Assembly: GCA_030615265.1 (NCBI GenBank)
Contig: JAUWZP010000001.1
Coordinates: 6,225-70,224, forward strand
Length of the DNA stretch: 64,000 nt
Reading direction: 5' to 3'
Source: Candidatus Bathyarchaeota archaeon
Lineage (GTDB): Archaea; Thermoproteota; Bathyarchaeia; Bathyarchaeales; Bathyarchaeaceae
Position 1 is the stretch's first letter; each line of letters opens with the position of its first letter. Below are positions 7,269-34,839 of this stretch, one piece after another. The position numbers and the translations under genes are program-made. Below the pieces are notes generated by a model. It was not told where the DNA came from. It worked only from the letters and a program-made list of their open reading frames with translations, and did not search any database.

Positions 7269-8228
7269 ATGTCTGTTTTGGTGACTGGCGGAGCAGGTTT
7301 TATTGGCAGTCATTTGGTAGATGCGTTAATTAACAGAGGTGCCCATGTAAAAGTTGTAGATAATCTTATTCGAGGAAAACTTTCTAACATTGCATACTGT
7401 CGTGACAAAATAGAATTTGTGGAAGAGGACTTGACAAAAAGATCAGTTGCATACGAAGCAACAAGAAATATAGACGTATGTTTTCATTTGGCAGCAACAG
7501 TTGGTGGTGTGCAATTCATGGCTTCTCATCCTGCAGAAATTTTCAAGTCAGTTTGTATTGACCATAATGTAATAGATGCTTGCTGGAAAACGGGTGTCGA
7601 AAGGCTACTTTATACGTCATCTGCATGCGTTTATCCAGTAAGTCTTCAAAAGCACGTCAGTCAACGACCTCTCAAAGAAGAGGATGCTTACAGCGTCGAA
7701 CCAGACACTGACTATGGTTGGGTGAAAATGCTGGGAGAAATTCAATGTCGTGCTTATCATAGAGCTTATAGAATGAAAATTGCAATGGTCAGGCCATTCA
7801 ATCCCTATGGAGAAAGAGAAAGTTTTGATCCAGATGATAGTCATGTAATTCCAGCGTTAATTCGAAAGGCTGTAAATCGAGAAAATCCCTTTGTTGTGTG
7901 GGGAGATGGCACGCAAACTAGATCATTCGAGTATGTTGGAGACGTTGTTGAAGGAATGATTTTGGCGGTAGAAAAAACTGTTAACGCAGATCCCATAAAT
8001 CTTGGAAGCTCAGGCATAAGCATTCGTGAGTTGGCGGAGTTAATTTTGAAGCTGACAGGGCATGAAATTCCAATCCAGTGGGATACATCGAAGCCTGTAG
8101 GAGTTAAAAGTAGAAAGGCAGATGTTTCTAAAGCAAAGAAACTTTTAGGATGGGATGCAAAAACACCGTTGGAAAAAGGTTTAAAAAAGATAATTAAGTG
8201 GTATAAAGAAACATGTCAGAAATCTTAA
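7269..8228 (+). CDS. NAD-dependent epimerase/dehydratase (UDP-sugar 4-epimerase / decarboxylase-like SDR)
   Basis: MSVLVTGGAGFIGSHLVDAL Rossmann motif, SSACVYP and a YGWVK (YxxxK) catalytic motif. ATG 7269 preferred over TTG 7254. Confidence 0.85.
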   Translation: MSVLVTGGAGFIGSHLVDALINRGAHVKVVDNLIRGKLSNIAYCRDKIEFVEEDLTKRSVAYEATRNIDVCFHLAATVGGVQFMASHPAEIFKSVCIDHNVIDACWKTGVERLLYTSSACVYPVSLQKHVSQRPLKEEDAYSVEPDTDYGWVKMLGEIQCRAYHRAYRMKIAMVRPFNPYGERESFDPDDSHVIPALIRKAVNRENPFVVWGDGTQTRSFEYVGDVVEGMILAVEKTVNADPINLGSSGISIRELAELILKLTGHEIPIQWDTSKPVGVKSRKADVSKAKKLLGWDAKTPLEKGLKKIIKWYKETCQKS

Positions 8229-23106: not shown

Positions 23107-24132
23107 CTATAGGTATTTTCTCATGTGTTCCAGCGCTGCTGAAGGGACAGGCAGGTCTTTCATTGTAACTACGCCAGGCGGAGCGTTTATCACTTTAGGA
23201 ATCGAATTTGCAATCACGGCTATTGTAGCTAGATCGCCATGTACGCAGGGGCTTATCTTCTGACGGATCGGTGGCACTCCATCGATGGTTACAGCATCGT
23301 ACTCTTCTTCCGCGCCTATATAGGCTTGAAACTCAAGTGTAATCCTCTCTTTTCCGTTGACAAAGCCGTGAGCGCTTTGCTTTAGGCCTGTGGCTTGTCC
23401 TCGCTTCACTTTGATGGCTTCGCTTGAAACATCTTTCCTAGCTATTACGGGCTCAACTGGGTCTATCTTAATCTTGTCAAGTTGCCATTTTAGGGCCCCA
23501 GCGATCATGCCTATTGACTGTTCAAGACCTACGTGGCCAGTGATGGCTTTCTCCTTCATTTTTTTCTTAAATTCTTTCACGGTGAGTCCTGCTCCTATCT
23601 TCTTTTGGAACGGAACTCTCCGTGTAGCAGCGTTCATGACTCTTTCAACTTTTATTCTGTTGACTTTTTGGCACACCGCAGTAAGCGTTATGACCAGCGT
23701 GTCCATTAGAAAACCTGGGTTTATGCCTGTTCCCAGAAAGGTTACTCCGTACTTCAGGCCTAAGGCATCTAGTTTCTTTGCAAGTTCAGGTTCTGAAACA
23801 TAGGGATAAGACAGTTCTTCGCACGTGGAAACCACGTTTACTCCATACTCAGCCAATGGAGCTATTTGAGGATAGACATCCCTAAGATAAGAGCTGGTTG
23901 CATGAACCACAACGTCTGCGCAAGCCTTGCCGAACACAGCCTTCGGGTCGTTTGAAACAACGACACCTAGCCGTTTGCCAATGCTTAAAACTTCGCCTAG
24001 GTCTTTTCCAACTTTGTCTTTGGCGATGTCTATGGCGCCTACGATTTTCACTCCTTCCTTTTCGAGGAGAAATTTAGCAATGCGGCTTCCAATGGCGCCA
24101 ACACCGTAAAGAACAACTCTTATTTTCTCCAT
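23107..24132 (-). CDS. NAD(P)-dependent DapB-like amine dehydrogenase family protein (2,4-diaminopentanoate dehydrogenase-like)
   Basis: IRVVLYGVGAIGSRIAKFLL Rossmann N-terminus, GTGINPGFLMD, and a C-terminal dimerisation domain as in the DapB/AmDH-like family. Confidence 0.6.
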   Translation of the reverse strand: MEKIRVVLYGVGAIGSRIAKFLLEKEGVKIVGAIDIAKDKVGKDLGEVLSIGKRLGVVVSNDPKAVFGKACADVVVHATSSYLRDVYPQIAPLAEYGVNVVSTCEELSYPYVSEPELAKKLDALGLKYGVTFLGTGINPGFLMDTLVITLTAVCQKVNRIKVERVMNAATRRVPFQKKIGAGLTVKEFKKKMKEKAITGHVGLEQSIGMIAGALKWQLDKIKIDPVEPVIARKDVSSEAIKVKRGQATGLKQSAHGFVNGKERITLEFQAYIGAEEEYDAVTIDGVPPIRQKISPCVHGDLATIAVIANSIPKVINAPPGVVTMKDLPVPSAALEHMRKYL

Positions 24133-24513
24133 ACAGCTTCCTCGTCGGTTAGCTATTTCTAAATTGGAATCAAAGATAAAGCCTTATTCTGCTTAAAAGC
24201 CTAATCACTAACTTTCAGCGTTTAGACACTAAATGTTTTGGGTCTTCCGAAGACCATGCGCGCGCATAGTCGATCAGTCTCCCATACGTGTTTACTGTGA
24301 CCAATGAGTTCATGTCATTGTCCAAGTCCTATAGTTGCGAATTCGAGTTTTTGGCTGAACTGTTTGGGGTTGTAGATTCTTCCATCGATTAGTAGGGGGC
24401 TTTTTCTTTTTGTTGGTTGAGTTTTTCGTTTGGTGGTGATGTCGAGCGCTAAGTTAATAAATGTGTTTCTTATTTTTATTTTTGGTTATAATTTGAATAA
24501 CTAGTGGTCGATT

Positions 24514-25407
24514 ATGTCGGGGTTGCCGTTGTGGTTCACGTTGTACTCAAAATTGGTCGAGTTCGGTCTTTATAGAGATCTTGCTTTTCGTGACGTTCAA
24601 GGGGTTTTGGGTCTGTCTACTGGCCATGTTAAACAGGTTATTCGGAAGTTGTTGGAGTTGAAGTTGATTGTGGGTCGTAGCAATCCTTTGGATAAGCGTT
24701 TTACTTTGTATAGGGTTGTTCCTTTACCTCTCTGGTCGAAGTACTGCGAGATGAAAGATGGGCTACCTGAGCAGTTAAGGGATGTTTTTCCCCTTCTTTT
24801 TTCCATTAAAGATGTCCATGCCGTTTTGCTTCTGGGCAGTTATGCCAGGAAGGATTTTGATGAGAAGAGCGATGTTGATGTACTTGTTGTCAGTGATGAT
24901 CCTGAAAGAGTGTTAGATTTGACCTATCACATTTGCTTGAATTTGCCTATCGATTTGCATTCATGTACCCCAGATGAATTTAGGAATTCGTTGTACCCGC
25001 TGATTCCGCATGTTGCGTTGTATGATGATGGTACCTGTGGGGAAGTAGACGTTTCACAAATTGAGGTCCTAAAGCTTTTACGCGATGCCATTGAGGGTGC
25101 ACAGAAAGTTTTGTATTTATATGCGAACGGGTTGGTTCGATTCCATCGTGTTTTTCCGGCCGTTTATGAATTAGTTTTCATTGACACCTTGCTTCACGGT
25201 TCAACCGAGCAACGTAAAGAAGATGTTTTAGAAAAGTTCTTTGTTGAGCACACCTCGGTCGGAAACTTGAAAAATGACTTGTTTAGGCTTTTGAGAATGT
25301 ATGAAAACTTGACGAAGGCGAGAGGTGAAGAAGTAGAACGTTTAGATCTGAAGGGGGAAGTGGAAATTTATAATAAAATCATTTCAGAGGTAAGCAAACA
25401 TGTCTGA
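24514..25407 (+). CDS. minimal nucleotidyltransferase (MNT, Pol-beta superfamily) with N-terminal winged-helix domain
   Basis: LLLGSYARKDFDEKSDVDVLVV is the GS-x9-11-DxD NTase signature. The N-terminal GLSTGHVKQVIRKLLELKLIV is HTH-like. Confidence 0.7.
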   Translation: MSGLPLWFTLYSKLVEFGLYRDLAFRDVQGVLGLSTGHVKQVIRKLLELKLIVGRSNPLDKRFTLYRVVPLPLWSKYCEMKDGLPEQLRDVFPLLFSIKDVHAVLLLGSYARKDFDEKSDVDVLVVSDDPERVLDLTYHICLNLPIDLHSCTPDEFRNSLYPLIPHVALYDDGTCGEVDVSQIEVLKLLRDAIEGAQKVLYLYANGLVRFHRVFPAVYELVFIDTLLHGSTEQRKEDVLEKFFVEHTSVGNLKNDLFRLLRMYENLTKARGEEVERLDLKGEVEIYNKIISEVSKHV

Positions 25408-25777
25408 AGAAGTTCGTGGCATAATAGATAGCGGCAACAACGCGTATGATAGGGGTGATTATACGGGGGCGGTTTTGGCGTATGATTCAGCCATTGAAGG
25501 AATGTTTAGAAGATATTTTTTCACGCGATACAATGAGACCGTTGGTTATGATTGGAGAAAGGTTGAAGAGGAATTCAAATCAAAGAACGTTAAACTTCCG
25601 CGTAAAATAAGCCGCCTTGTGTCTGAGTTTGCCCTTCTCAGATGGAAATCAAAGAGGGGCCCAAAATATCATTGGGCCAGAGCATTTGATAAAAGGGATG
25701 CTGAAAGGTACAAGGAACTAGTTAACAAGGTCTACGTAGCCACACAAAAATATCTACATAGGTTGCCACCAATTTGA
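25400..25777 (+). CDS. HEPN-domain protein, partner of the MNT
   Basis: All-helical 125 aa with an R-x4-H motif (KRGPKYH). 8-nt overlap with the upstream NTase gene, the usual MNT-HEPN operon layout. Confidence 0.5.
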   Translation: MSEEVRGIIDSGNNAYDRGDYTGAVLAYDSAIEGMFRRYFFTRYNETVGYDWRKVEEEFKSKNVKLPRKISRLVSEFALLRWKSKRGPKYHWARAFDKRDAERYKELVNKVYVATQKYLHRLPPI

Positions 25778-25874
25778 ATGTTGGTGCGACGCGCGGGTGT
25801 GAGTTGTATTATCTTTTTGTTAGTGTCTTTTTGTAGACCTTTACCTACCCCCTCTAGGTTTCCATGTATCGCGA

Positions 25875-25913
25875 ATATTTGAATCCAAATATGCAGGGTA
25901 TGGAAAAAAGGGG
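25875..25913. promoter_or_regulatory. composite module copy 1: near-palindrome ATATTTGAATCCAAATAT + 9-nt spacer + GGAAAAAAGGGG
   Basis: Read directly from the sequence. Copy 2 at 26712-26753 has identical spacing. On the minus strand the second half reads CCCCTTTTTTCC, which is oligo-T terminator-like. Confidence 0.6.
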
Positions 25914-26345
25914 TGTTTTTTCAGAACGTGTTTACTTGTCGTCGGCGCTAAGCGCCATAAGACGACGACAACTATAAAACTTCCAGACTTGCAAGGGGGC
26001 CCTACCTGAAAAGTCTACTGCAACTTGTTGTTGTGCAAAACCCACAGAAAAACACACAACAACAAGTGTGCCTCTCAGCAAGGATCTTCTAACACCTGAG
26101 CAGGCCTTGAAGATTTTAGCTGGCGCCAATCAAAAAGGCAGGTGGGAGTTGTTGTTGGTAAGCGAAAAACTAAGAAAACAACAACTGTGCCTTAGCAGGT
26201 TAGGCTTAAAAGTAGTTGTTCGCCGAAAACCTGGGAAACCGTGAACAACAACTTCTAAGCTTGTTCCCAAGGATATTTTAACACATGATAATCATCTTTT
26301 TACGTGGAATTTTTGGCATAAAAATGATACCCCCTATATTTTTCG
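25902..26345. ncRNA. candidate structured ncRNA / hairpin array (strand unresolved)
   Basis: No credible ORF. Six consecutive hairpins: 25936-25971, 25985-26016, 26023-26067, 26070-26105, 26147-26186 and 26210-26254. The ends are partly complementary (GGGGT at 25910 vs ACCCC at 26329). T-runs lie at 26338-26356 on the plus strand, and the A6 at 25904-25909 gives a minus-strand T-run. Confidence 0.35.
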
Positions 26346-26363
26346 TTATTCTTTTTGAGCTTT

Positions 26364-26411
26364 GGAAAAAAGGTCGTTTTCAACATACGTCCTTTATTAG
26401 GATCCAAATAT
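26364..26411. repeat. rearranged third copy of the module: GGAAAAAAGG + 26 nt + GGATCCAAATAT half-palindrome
   Basis: It has the same two sequence elements as 25875-25913 and 26712-26753, but in swapped order. Confidence 0.5.
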
Positions 26412-26413
26412 GC

Positions 26414-26600
26414 TCACCCTTTTGCAGTTAACAAGACGCCGACTATTGTTCCGATTAACCCGATGATTGCAGAGAAGATCTCGCTACTGAAAGAACCGAT
26501 GTACACAATGTGCACAATCTTGCTTCTACTTCGCCTGCCTTGAGAACGGTTACGCTGATTCCCCAGCCTGCTGGTATGGCCGTGTAGTCGATGTCGTAAA
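26414..26600 (-). pseudogene. relic of the C-terminal end of a membrane-anchored protein (frameshifted, no start)
   Basis: One frame gives NIYDIDYTAIPAGWGISVTVLKAGEVEAR. A neighbouring frame continues IVHIVYIGSFSSEIFSAIIGLIGTIVGVLLTAKG-stop (a TM helix). A stop lies immediately upstream. Confidence 0.3.
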
Positions 26601-26711
26601 TGTTTTAACACATGAAAAGGTTTGGAGTTCTGGTGGCGTTTCCATCAAACTTTGTGCGCAGCTTTCTAATTTTGAACGCCAAAAAAAACACGTCTTTCTC
26701 CCATAGTTTTT

Positions 26712-26753
26712 ATATTTGGATCCAAATATCTGTTCTATGGGAAAAAAGGGGGG
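26712..26753. promoter_or_regulatory. composite module copy 2: perfect 18-nt palindrome ATATTTGGATCCAAATAT + 9-nt spacer + GGGAAAAAAGGGGGG
   Basis: Read directly from the sequence. It is followed by TATCCCC, so the minus strand reads GGGGATACCCCCCTTTTTT, a hairpin plus a U-run. Confidence 0.6.
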
Positions 26754-26802
26754 TATCCCCGTTTTACGAATTAGAAAACTGCTTACGCCTCAGCAGACCT
26801 TT

Positions 26803-26859
26803 TCATGCGTTAAAACCTCGCCTGGGAACAAGCTTAGAAGTAGTAGCCTATGGCTACTA
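26803..26859 (-). repeat. inverted copy of the 26210-26288 module (hairpin + CTTCTAAGCTTGTTCCCA + TTTTAACRCATGA)
   Basis: 18-nt perfect inverted repeat, 26252-26269 vs 26823-26840. The flanking TTTTAACGCATGA (reverse complement of 26803-26815) matches TTTTAACACATGA at 26276-26288. The hairpin position is kept but its sequence differs (TAGTAGCC-TAT-GGCTACTA, 26841-26859). Confidence 0.7.
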
Positions 26860-26944
26860 ATTATCGGTTGCAGTAAAAATTTTCACGGCGGAGTACGTAT
26901 GCACGTGCACGTCGCAAAAACCGTTCAAAACAAGCTTGGAAACA

Positions 26945-26975
26945 GAAAAAAGGGGAGTTTACGGGGGACATCTCC
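26945..26975 (-). terminator. probable terminator of the rpl3-rpl4-rpl23 transcript
   Basis: The minus strand reads GGAGATGTCCCCCGTAAACTCCCCTTTTTTC, about 45-75 nt after the rpl23 stop. GGAG/CTCC can pair and are followed by a T6 run; archaeal termination typically uses oligo-T. Confidence 0.5.
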
Positions 26976-27018
26976 AGCATTAATATCTTAAAAGCCTAAT
27001 GACTTAATTCGCAGCCAA

Positions 27019-34733: not shown

Positions 34734-34839
34734 TGGTGCGGCGGGCCGGATTCGAACCGGCGAACCCCTACGGGAAAGGATCTTGAGTCCTTCGCCTAAT
34801 GTCGCTTTTCAAGCTTTGACCTGGCTTGGCTACCGCCGC
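34734..34839 (-). tRNA. tRNA-Leu(CAA): tRNA-Leu (anticodon CAA) with encoded CCA and an about 18-nt intron at a non-canonical D-arm position
   Basis: The reverse complement reads GCGGCGG-TA-GCCAAGCCAGGTCAAAG[CTTGAAAAGCGACATTAG]GC-G-AAGGA-CTCAAGA-TCCTT-TCCCGTAGGGGTTC-GCCGG-TTCGAAT-CCGGC-CCGCCGC-A-CCA. It has a 7-bp acceptor stem, a T-arm, a long variable arm and a CAA anticodon loop. The bracketed insert (plus-strand 34796-34813) breaks the D-stem. Confidence 0.85.

Follow-up and report, generated by a model that had tools for sequence, protein, structure and literature searches.

A probable relic array of a virus-like gene with a covarying hairpin in an ORF-free tract of a Bathyarchaeota genome

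The pac sites of headful-packaging phages sit in small-terminase (terS) genes, as in gene 3 of P22 or the gene 1 region of SPP1. Small terminases are proteins of 15-21 kDa with a helix-turn-helix (HTH) at the N-terminus and a helical oligomerisation core, and they are encoded next to the large subunit, TerL (PMC9611059). Here, we compare with such systems a stretch of 64,000 nucleotides from Candidatus Bathyarchaeota archaeon (the window), in which an earlier reading of the bare sequence (the original prediction) had singled out a tract of six back-to-back hairpins, free of open reading frames (ORFs), as a candidate novel structured RNA or protein-binding array. These hairpins very probably derive from a putatively small-terminase-like gene of virus-like elements, hereafter gene X, whose intact copies contain a stem-loop kept by covariation. 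The gene X hairpin resembles pac in being a putative cis element within a small gene directly upstream of a TerL-like gene, in occurring once per genome, and in the make-up of the product of that gene, a protein of ~16-18 kDa with an HTH-like N-terminus and a helical core. It differs from the pac site of P22, a 22-bp asymmetric sequence with no stem-loop (PMC9611059), in that what is conserved in gene X is base pairing, by synonymous covariation; and the elements carrying gene X are uncultivated and without recognised virion genes. By analogy, the closest functional counterpart would be a pac site in a small-terminase gene, but in the form of a covarying stem-loop instead of a sequence motif. 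We know of essentially no packaging signals described for archaeal head-tail-like viruses, and of none at all for uncultivated viruses of Bathyarchaeia. The gene X hairpin is a concrete candidate for such a signal, or for another cis site of the terminase module, because it lies in a gene at the terS position, covaries at synonymous sites over four codon-pair variants, and is single-copy per element. In a narrow check of the literature, the terms 'hairpin' and 'inverted repeat' had 0 occurrences each in a paper on Bathyarchaeia viruses (PMC10541130).

The TerL-like protein of these elements has 80 relatives in the viral contigs of IMG/VR, and the tract, used as query on TerL-like loci, gives matches ~450-550 nt upstream of TerL. 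Gene X is an ORF of 141-161 aa directly upstream of the TerL-like gene in 19-20 of the IMG/VR loci. It has an HTH-like N-terminus, the motif ..R(L/M)G(L/V)xVV(V/G)-x5-12-TTT(S/T)..LPxELPSxEEALKILAGAL.. and a helical C-terminus. Matches to Myb and GcrA HTH domains are weak (E 1e-5 to 2e-2, below cutoffs), and no Pfam or PHROG family, TerS included, was matched at threshold. In size, position, and HTH plus helical layout, gene X fits the description of small terminases (PMC9611059), and we regard it as putatively small-terminase-like.

In each intact gene X, the V-V-V codons pair with the T-T-T(T) codons 15-25 nt downstream, and 19/19 genes have a perfect stem of 8-12 bp between these Val and Thr codons. 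The arms occur as GTT/AAC, GTA/TAC, GTC/GAC, and GTG/CAC, the third positions of the Val and Thr codons covarying. The mean perfect stem is 10.3 bp long, against 6.1 bp after resampling of synonymous codons, and the resamples reach the observed length in 0-47 of 500 cases per gene. In alignment A8, which combines 17 viral copies with the 4 of the window (13 pairs scored), the paired cells amount to 79.5% (67.2% in shuffles), the double-change cells to 38 (14.9 in shuffles), and the covariation score to 0.307 (0.111 in shuffles), none of the three values being reached in 500 shuffles; two synonymous-site pairs show all four Watson-Crick types. The GTN/NAC hairpin is found once per locus and within gene X only, a count that covers 220.7 kb of gene-X loci from partial genomes: 22 of the 47 perfect hairpins of at least 9 bp lie in the ~8.6 kb of gene X, and none of the other 25 is of the GTN type. 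We conclude that the gene X hairpin is a selected nucleic-acid element, because synonymous third positions covary in a way that maintains its pairing. Mismatches in the stems are 5 G.T vs 8 A.C, small numbers that reveal no wobble bias. This fits a structure at the level of DNA or of both strands, with no sign of selection on the sense RNA alone, and the hairpin probably acts as DNA, since wobble pairs are not favoured.

The tract in the window (~25930-26298, + strand) is very probably a non-coding array of four decayed tandem central segments of gene X. The six hairpins are all present where they had been placed (6/6), with the stems, the GAAAAAC or GAAAAC loop cores, and the GTGCCT..AGCA(A)GG strings 3' of H1 and H2 that had been described, and the repeat and gene X alignments agree with the view that they are paralogous copies of one unit. 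In these alignments, H0, H1, H2, and H3 read as the V-V-V/T-T-T segment of four tandem gene X relics. Hx and Hy, originally taken for modules of their own, read as neighbouring coding relics of gene X. H0 (25936-25971, +) is a (GTC)n-type Val/Thr hairpin with a 9-bp stem; it forms relic copy 0, reads LLVVGAKRHKTTTTIKLPDL, aligns with the viral hairpins in A8, and recurs as a module in L064 and L068 with its loop flipped. Relic copy 1 (25981-26139, +) is a central segment of gene X that contains Hx (25985-26016, +), the perfect 13-bp inverted repeat of H1 (26023-26035 / 26055-26067, +), and Hy (26070-26105, +). Its tblastn matches to gene X have E-values of 1e-7 to 1e-3, the best spanning 26026-26124 (E 9.6e-8) with stops and frameshifts; it reads ..TTTSVPLSKDLLTPEQALKILAGA where gene X has TTTTVPLDKDLLTHEEALKFLAGT, and the tract reading in tblastn is ..CCCAKPTEKHTTTSVPLSKDLLTPEQALKILAGA. 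The short relic copy (26143-26195, +), with the 10-bp stem of H2 (26147-26186, +), reads GVVVGKRKTKKTTTVP before a stop, is comparable with MGVVVGQKKIQRTTTTT of the viral locus L131, and was aligned with the viral hairpins in A8. Relic copy 2 (26182-26298, +; tblastn E 3.7e-6) contains H3 (26210-26254, +), whose stem of 11/12 bp has an A/A mismatch, and an 'E/T core' (26248-26291) that on the - strand is the conserved core of a unit described below (A'). It reads LSRLGLKVVVRRKPGKP, a stop, and TTTSKLVPKDILTHDNHL, where locus L140 has KRLDLKVVVQRNGSYRTTTSGLLPSDILTHEQAL. The arms of H3 are near-identical to those of L140: GAACAACAACTT is shared, and AAGTAGTTGTTC vs AAGTTGTTGTTC accounts for the A/A mismatch. 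All four copies have lost their frame and kept stems of 9-13 bp.

These alignments recast several features of the original prediction. The repeated unit, thought of as an RNA module, would be a fragment of a protein gene from virus-like elements, with the hairpin embedded in Val/Thr codons, and its GTGCCT..AGCAAGG tail would be a relic of VPLSKD codons. The tract is rightly called ORF-free in that the ORFs overlapping it are all short (46-65 aa), but its + strand still reads as relics of protein genes, frameshifted and interrupted by stops. For annotation, the lesson would be that a hairpin-rich tract devoid of ORFs can be a pseudogenised coding segment whose hairpin predates the decay. A hairpin like Hy (codons VPL...EEA) also forms in the intact gene X of L147 (7513-7548; GCCTCTC...GAAGAGGC).

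With moderate confidence, we favour the reading of the tract as a mobile or virus-derived relic array that preserves a cis-acting hairpin within a 2.8-kb insertion. Terminase-like machinery would use the hairpin as a cis-acting site in the elements from which it came, e.g. as a signal for packaging or cleavage of the pac type. Since headful packagers have their pac sites in terS genes, such a site is the first to come to mind, and we propose this function for the viral hairpin tentatively. In 19 IMG/VR loci, the hairpin lies within the ORF immediately upstream of the TerL-like gene, a position that concerns the viral copies and not the window array. The chromosomal array would be the product of recombination with such elements, keeping the site. 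A number of points weigh against one or another part of this reading: 1) part of the pairing comes free, since any GTN codon (Val) can pair with any ACN codon (Thr) at two positions out of three; 2) a partner slid by +/-3 columns in A8 still pairs at 57-74%; 3) in an independent contig of the same island (L037), the stems of H1, H2, and H3 are broken by changes that occur at 2.2%, a rate like that of the neighbouring genes; 4) the pac sites that are known do not take hairpin form, the one of P22, for instance, being an asymmetric 22-bp sequence (PMC9611059); 5) gene X is called TerS-like from its position, its size, and weak HTH matches; 6) the elements are called viral mainly through their classification in IMG/VR and their TerL-like gene, and could alternatively be mobile elements or defence modules; 7) an ABC-ATPase-like gene invariably follows the TerL-like gene; and 8) a PHROG search around L131 recognised no portal or capsid gene.

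Because the stem-breaking changes in L037 occur at the background rate, nothing indicates to us that the chromosomal hairpin copies are under constraint at present. The first three of these points would suit an explanation by plain junk, as would the surrounding units, which are clearly pseudogenes: the hairpin, without function in virus or host, would be incidental to V-V-V/T-T-T coding or to template-switch mutation that homogenises palindromes, and the tract would be the decaying scar of a recombination with a mobile element. We think this unlikely, given that synonymous resampling and shuffles fall short of the observed pairing and that 19/19 diverged genes keep a perfect stem with four different codon pairs. 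Moreover, conservation extends to the V and T runs as such, which lie at an interdomain linker, and the relic copies keep stems of 9-13 bp with destroyed frames.

A different explanation is a stand-alone gene for a structured non-coding RNA (ncRNA), transcribed either on the - strand from a promoter-like palindrome named P2 (~26386 to 25900, ending in CCCCTTTTTTCC) or on the + strand from its counterpart P1. The hairpins would then be functional domains, e.g. of an RNA that serves as decoy or antitoxin or that is antisense to the mRNA of gene X. Folding is indeed very stable and, in the comparison put forward with the prediction, better than that of dinucleotide-shuffled controls: the segment 25900-26290 folds at -125.5 kcal/mol on the + strand (z -5.01) and at -127.4 kcal/mol on the - strand (z -4.42), values equalled by 0/100 shuffles each. 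Two conserved promoter-like palindromes are directed towards the tract, each with an initiator-like (Inr-like) TATGG; an antisense gene-X segment comes after the promoter in all paralogous units; and the stems persist despite the loss of frame. Runs of five T are missing from the + strand over 25922-26295, with several beyond it, whereas the - strand has three within the array. A minus-strand transcript, as put forward in the original prediction, is plausible insofar as P2 (26394-26411) faces the tract, but the TATA-like TTAAAATAT (26273-26281) from which it was supposed to start is a poorer candidate than P2: it lies within a coding relic and is not kept as a TATA box in the paralogous copies. 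Other observations make a dedicated RNA gene improbable. It is missing at the syntenic site of the closest relatives and belongs to no Rfam family. The conserved 5' core of the units has no consensus RNA structure (-1.7 kcal/mol), the modules vary in number, order, and orientation from locus to locus, and the promoters come from a protein gene. Loop-specific RNA function is disfavoured, because the loops flip between loci, being reverse-complemented in otherwise identical contexts, and the stem mismatches come without an excess of G.U.

The searches against RNA families, one of the checks put forward with the prediction, gave no match for the tract. A scan of the whole window at Rfam gathering thresholds had 0 matches, and a permissive scan of 25700-26500 returned noise only (E>=0.25), headed by ctRNA_pT181 at 27 bits where 56 are required. 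The latter scan counts most for the tract, because the fast filter of the former missed a true tRNA elsewhere in the window. This tRNA gene (34737-34839, -; 50.3 bits in a local Rfam scan) has an insertion of ~26 nt in the D-loop region and an encoded CCA, and was missed by ARAGORN as well as by the whole-window gathering scan. ARAGORN found no tRNA in the hairpin tract, and the Rfam scan of the related locus L062 (1980-2720) gave only noise. As the original prediction had stated, nothing resembles a CRISPR array: the repeat search found only the paralogous palindromes, at the irregular spacings of 124 and 63 nt. Several other known elements were considered and dropped. RNA repeats like those of type III toxin-antitoxin systems were dropped on sequence, the spacing being irregular; a split or intron-bearing tRNA and a tmRNA-like (transfer-messenger RNA) domain were considered from sequence and dropped; and origin recognition boxes (ORBs) of a replication origin were dropped, with no Orc1/Cdc6 gene among the 24 neighbouring ORFs scanned. 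The attC sites of integrons share with the tract the array of structure-conserved hairpins near small cassette-like genes, including toxin-antitoxin genes. They have RYYYAAC...GTTRRRY ends, i.e. a 5' arm ending in AAC and a 3' arm starting with GTT, as well as extrahelical bases, and need the IntI integrase. The window hairpins have instead a (GTN)n 5' arm and a (NAC)n 3' arm, with no integrase, and attC was dropped for this wrong polarity of the arms.

The genomic context identifies the tract as part of an insertion. A SPOUT methyltransferase gene and rpl3-rpl4-rpl23 lie on the - strand and end at the rpl23 stop (27019); the product of rpl4 is 84% identical to that of a Bathyarchaeota metagenome-assembled genome (MAG). 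A blastn search of the tract against 35 syntenic Bathyarchaeia loci found nothing, and it was this empty result that led to the insertion. In the three closest relatives (L001, L002, L004), a gene for a diaminopimelate dehydrogenase-like (DAP-DH-like) protein follows rpl3-rpl4-rpl23 within ~95 bp, whereas in the window an extra block of 2.8 kb (24206-26986) separates rpl23 from this gene (23107-24132). The block lies between two exact copies of a 14-bp direct repeat, CTTAAAAGCCTAAT (24192-24205 and 26987-27000), the right one preceding the stop codon of rpl23, and this sequence is single-copy in the rpl23/DAP-DH intergenic region of relatives L001 and L004. No terminal inverted repeats were found at the ends of the block, and neither an integrase gene nor one resembling IS200 or the REP-associated tyrosine transposase (RAYT) was seen in it. 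The arrangement is genuine, as confirmed by two independent contigs: one from Logan (L036) is 100% identical over 24886-26153 and breaks within H2, and one from JGI (L037), 98.2% identical, spans from the nucleotidyltransferase gene of the insertion into rpl3. The absence of the block at the syntenic site of relatives speaks against a conserved cellular feature and against the dedicated RNA gene that had been envisaged, while homologous copies do exist elsewhere, in metagenomic loci and in gene X of IMG/VR. Satellites such as phage-inducible chromosomal islands (PICI) and PICI-like elements (PLE), which carry pac/cos sites or terS variants and thereby hijack the packaging of a helper, are similar in being small islands bounded by direct repeats with sequence derived from a packaging region. 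The island in the window, however, has 2.8 kb, lacks genes for integrase, replication, and capsid remodelling, and its terS-like sequences would be non-coding relics.

Within the insertion, a 1.24-kb ORF-poor stretch that includes the hairpins consists, in self-comparison, of repeated modules in both orientations. A unit comprises the palindrome ATATTTGGATCCAAATAT, TATGG 7 bases downstream, a short conserved 5' region, a core (CTTTTCATGYGTTAAAA ... TGGGAACAAGCTTAGAAGT), and hairpins. P1 is the start of what we call a type-1 small gene (25875-25935, +), with the palindrome ATATTTGAATCCAAATAT at 25875-25892, an ATG at 25900, and ~12 codons. It points into the tract, and is paralogous to P2, to P3, and to the promoter and start of full-length genes in other loci (L070-L072). 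From the opposite side, the head of unit A' (26292-26411, -) also points into the tract: P2 (26394-26411) is followed by an ATG (26386) and by what remains of a type-1b small gene, ~28 codons in decay. This head is similar to a small gene upstream of TerL in L075 and L076. The array is thus bracketed by convergent relics, P1 (+) and P2 (-), in each of which a promoter-like palindrome precedes the initial codons of a second type of small gene, known from related elements. Next to A' lies the relic of a small membrane ORF (26414-26611, -), of which the C-terminal 32 aa are identical to L072 483-725 at 24/32 positions (75%, E 7e-15) and which also matches L070-L072 by blastn. Unit B' (26602-26729, -) contains P3 and the 5' part of a type-1 small gene, with a frameshift and a stop after 12 codons. 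P3 (26712-26729), a perfect 18-bp palindrome, ATATTTGGATCCAAATAT, is common to the divergent units B' and C and used on both strands. Unit C (26737-26991, +) has a 5' fragment, an antisense gene-X core (26797-26844), a short (GTA)n hairpin (26838-26862), and an ORF of 84 codons. The core of the units reads as the antisense of VPxDKD(I/L)LTHE, and each unit appears to be a chimera in which a promoter and ~23 type-1 codons stand head-on to an antisense fragment of gene X.

The idea that the window units encode a leaderless small protein was rejected, given frameshifts, neutral divergence, and the deletion in L037. The ORF of unit C is 76% identical in amino acids to its counterpart in L060 at 88% nucleotide identity, which is the neutral expectation, and in the strain variant L037 a 2-nt deletion near its start breaks the frame. 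Moreover, its reading frame differs from that of D-type units across conserved DNA, and conserved DNA continues over frameshifts between units. From these sequence comparisons, the 84-codon ORF appears to evolve neutrally and the ORFs of the window units to be non-functional genes.

Copies of the units are found in other metagenomes. Contig L038, picked up when metagenomes were scanned for the pattern, has a unit that stands alone. Since gene callers sometimes call ORFs in such DNA, we searched a protein database with the spurious ORFs of the units, which recovered further copies (L060-L069) and eventually led to the real full-length genes. Altogether, relic modules follow truncated copies of the small gene in at least 8 other metagenomic loci (L038, L060-L069). 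Scans of viral-contig DNA for the patterns of the E, P, and T motifs had 0 matches or chance ones of 17-20 nt. Between loci, the hairpin modules vary in number, order, and orientation, and whole hairpins are gained or lost, L064 having one additional hairpin and unit B' a hairpin remnant. The loop of the (GTC)n hairpin is reverse-complemented between L061 (574-609) and L068 (1779-1814), with the same stems and the same 12-nt flanks, and likewise between H0 of the window (25936-25971) and L064 (1779-1814), with the same stems and merely similar flanks. This would imply inversion of the DNA between the arms. Several of the short contigs begin or end within units, as expected because repeats break assemblies. 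In L060 (1-709), a segment from H1 to Hy is joined to the 3' end of a small gene of the insertion, which encodes 125 aa, via an 11-nt microhomology (AATCAAARAGG); this junction is either a rearranged version of the island or an assembly chimera.

A pattern of clustered palindromes with a variable number and orientation of modules invites comparison with repetitive extragenic palindromic (REP) elements. REP elements, bacterial interspersed mosaic elements (BIME), and BOX-type repeats share with the tract the clusters of short palindromes in non-coding DNA and the differences between strains (PMC3733652). Under this explanation, the hairpins would be mobile palindromes like REP/BIME or like miniature transposable elements with inverted repeats (MITE), spreading by themselves in Bathyarchaeia and resembling gene X by chance. 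It would account for the scatter of modules over many short metagenomic contigs that break inside them, for the insertion and deletion of whole hairpins (the extra one in L064, the remnant in B'), for the flip-flop of loops, and for GTAG and CGTC strings in the arms that look like tags of the REP superfamily (PMC3733652). These strings, however, lie within the paired (GTA)n/(GTC)n arms, whereas the tags of REPs are unpaired terminal tetranucleotides (PMC3733652). REPs have, besides the unpaired tag, loops of 2-20 nt, a high copy number, and often a RAYT, and are reported for bacteria, whereas the palindromes of the window look like relics of coding segments and have loops of 15-25 nt, each source element has a single copy, and no transposase or RAYT/IS200-like gene was seen in the insertion. 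We find it quite doubtful that the resemblance to gene X is accidental: the arms and both flanks are homologous to its coding sequence, beyond the palindrome, the hairpin is strictly single-copy and intragenic in the virus-like elements, and no copy was found in the remainder of the window (64 kb) or in the loci of the 35 relatives.

The source of the promoter-like modules points in turn to elements with a TerL-like gene. Two of the database matches to the unit ORFs are genuine proteins of ~115 aa from a small family that shares their N-terminus, MxKRGVFLxFKIRKLRAEFDGKTQAVRGALIAELEEL. In L072, a small membrane ORF is followed by the palindrome P, by the full-length type-1 gene, and then by a TerL-like gene of 417 aa that matches the PHROG terminase large subunit at 2e-20. 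The T-run just past the 'promoter' consists of codons for V-F-L and is not an early terminator, and the truncated units match the type-1 gene only to about codon 23, where they switch to the core. The predicted structure of the type-1 protein is a generic helical bundle, for which Foldseek had no specific match. The ORF directly upstream of the TerL-like gene (L074-L153) may be gene X, a type-1 'DTQ..R' gene, one of the 'FCRIA..SLQYMKLAAKLLGL' type, or others, all looking unrelated, which suggests that the small subunit may have been replaced in a modular way while TerL was kept. The ABC-ATPase-like gene that always follows the TerL-like gene encodes ~480 aa (for the two genes, see L072 1234-3929 and L131 7677-10627). 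The TerL-like module of L072 stands beside PLD, DndB, HaeIII-type restriction endonuclease/methyltransferase (RE/MTase), and HsdR_N genes, and resembles a defence island. A tblastn search of the window with the TerL-like protein found nothing, and we therefore see no provirus in these 64 kb. Relic arrays of this kind may arise when the gene region recombines into host DNA, leaving structured, promoter-flanked remnants that can be mistaken for novel RNA genes.

The favoured reading of a relic array leaves room for activity. The array may be transcribed from P1 or P2, and could still be bound or cut when one of these elements is active. Going further, the four chromosomal copies might be a working set of the viral packaging or cleavage hairpin and not a dead scar, an option that we consider rather unlikely. 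If so, the array could be 1) a decoy by which the terminase-like machinery of gene-X viruses is titrated or led astray, i.e. a defence; 2) a handle for packaging the island and neighbouring host DNA, as in satellite or lateral transduction; or 3) a template for antisense or double-stranded RNA, made from the conserved promoters facing the antisense gene-X segment and directed against the small-terminase mRNA of a competing type of virus.

Apart from the ORF-poor stretch, the insertion contains two overlapping genes. The first (24514-25407, +) encodes a 297-aa protein with a winged HTH (wHTH) and a minimal nucleotidyltransferase (MNT) domain (GSxxR..DVD), recognised by Pfam NTP_transf_2 (7e-8), Polbeta, and PADLOC PDC-S09, with a match to NCBIfam MntA below cutoff. 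The second is the ORF of 125 aa (25400-25777, +), which overlaps the MNT stop codon, has by eye an RGPKYH (Rx4H-like) motif, and matched no family; it is possibly a HEPN-type partner. The pair resembles the type VII MNT-HEPN toxin-antitoxin systems in the GSxxR..DxD motif of the 297-aa protein and in the overlapping small gene, but the MNT protein is longer, with an N-terminal wHTH, and the partner has no match to HEPN families. Units next to an MNT-type gene occur a second time in L067 (1-3381), a toxin-antitoxin island with UPF0175, a DUF3368 PIN-like gene, and a wHTH-MNT nucleotidyltransferase, in which the units have the same orientation and lie at both contig ends. The nucleotidyltransferases of L067 and of the window can be aligned only over a 29-aa motif of the domain, with 41% identity there, and, the relation being distant, a link of the hairpins with the MNT gene was dropped.

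Two further observations concern the surroundings of the palindromes. In several units, a fragment resembling the 3' end of a tRNA (GGGTTCRAATCCC...GGCGCCA) lies ~20 nt upstream of the palindrome (L038 6036-6150 and, in reverse, 7900-7935; L061 ~280-310; L062 2390-2416). The fragments of L038 and L062 were not called tRNA by Rfam, and they may be remnants of att sites. Finally, rpl3 of a Bathyarchaeia MAG that is more distantly related has a P-like palindrome (ATATTTGGACCCTAATAG) followed by GGGGGCTATCC upstream of it (L024 4722-4760), which extends the promoter-like module past the immediate lineage.

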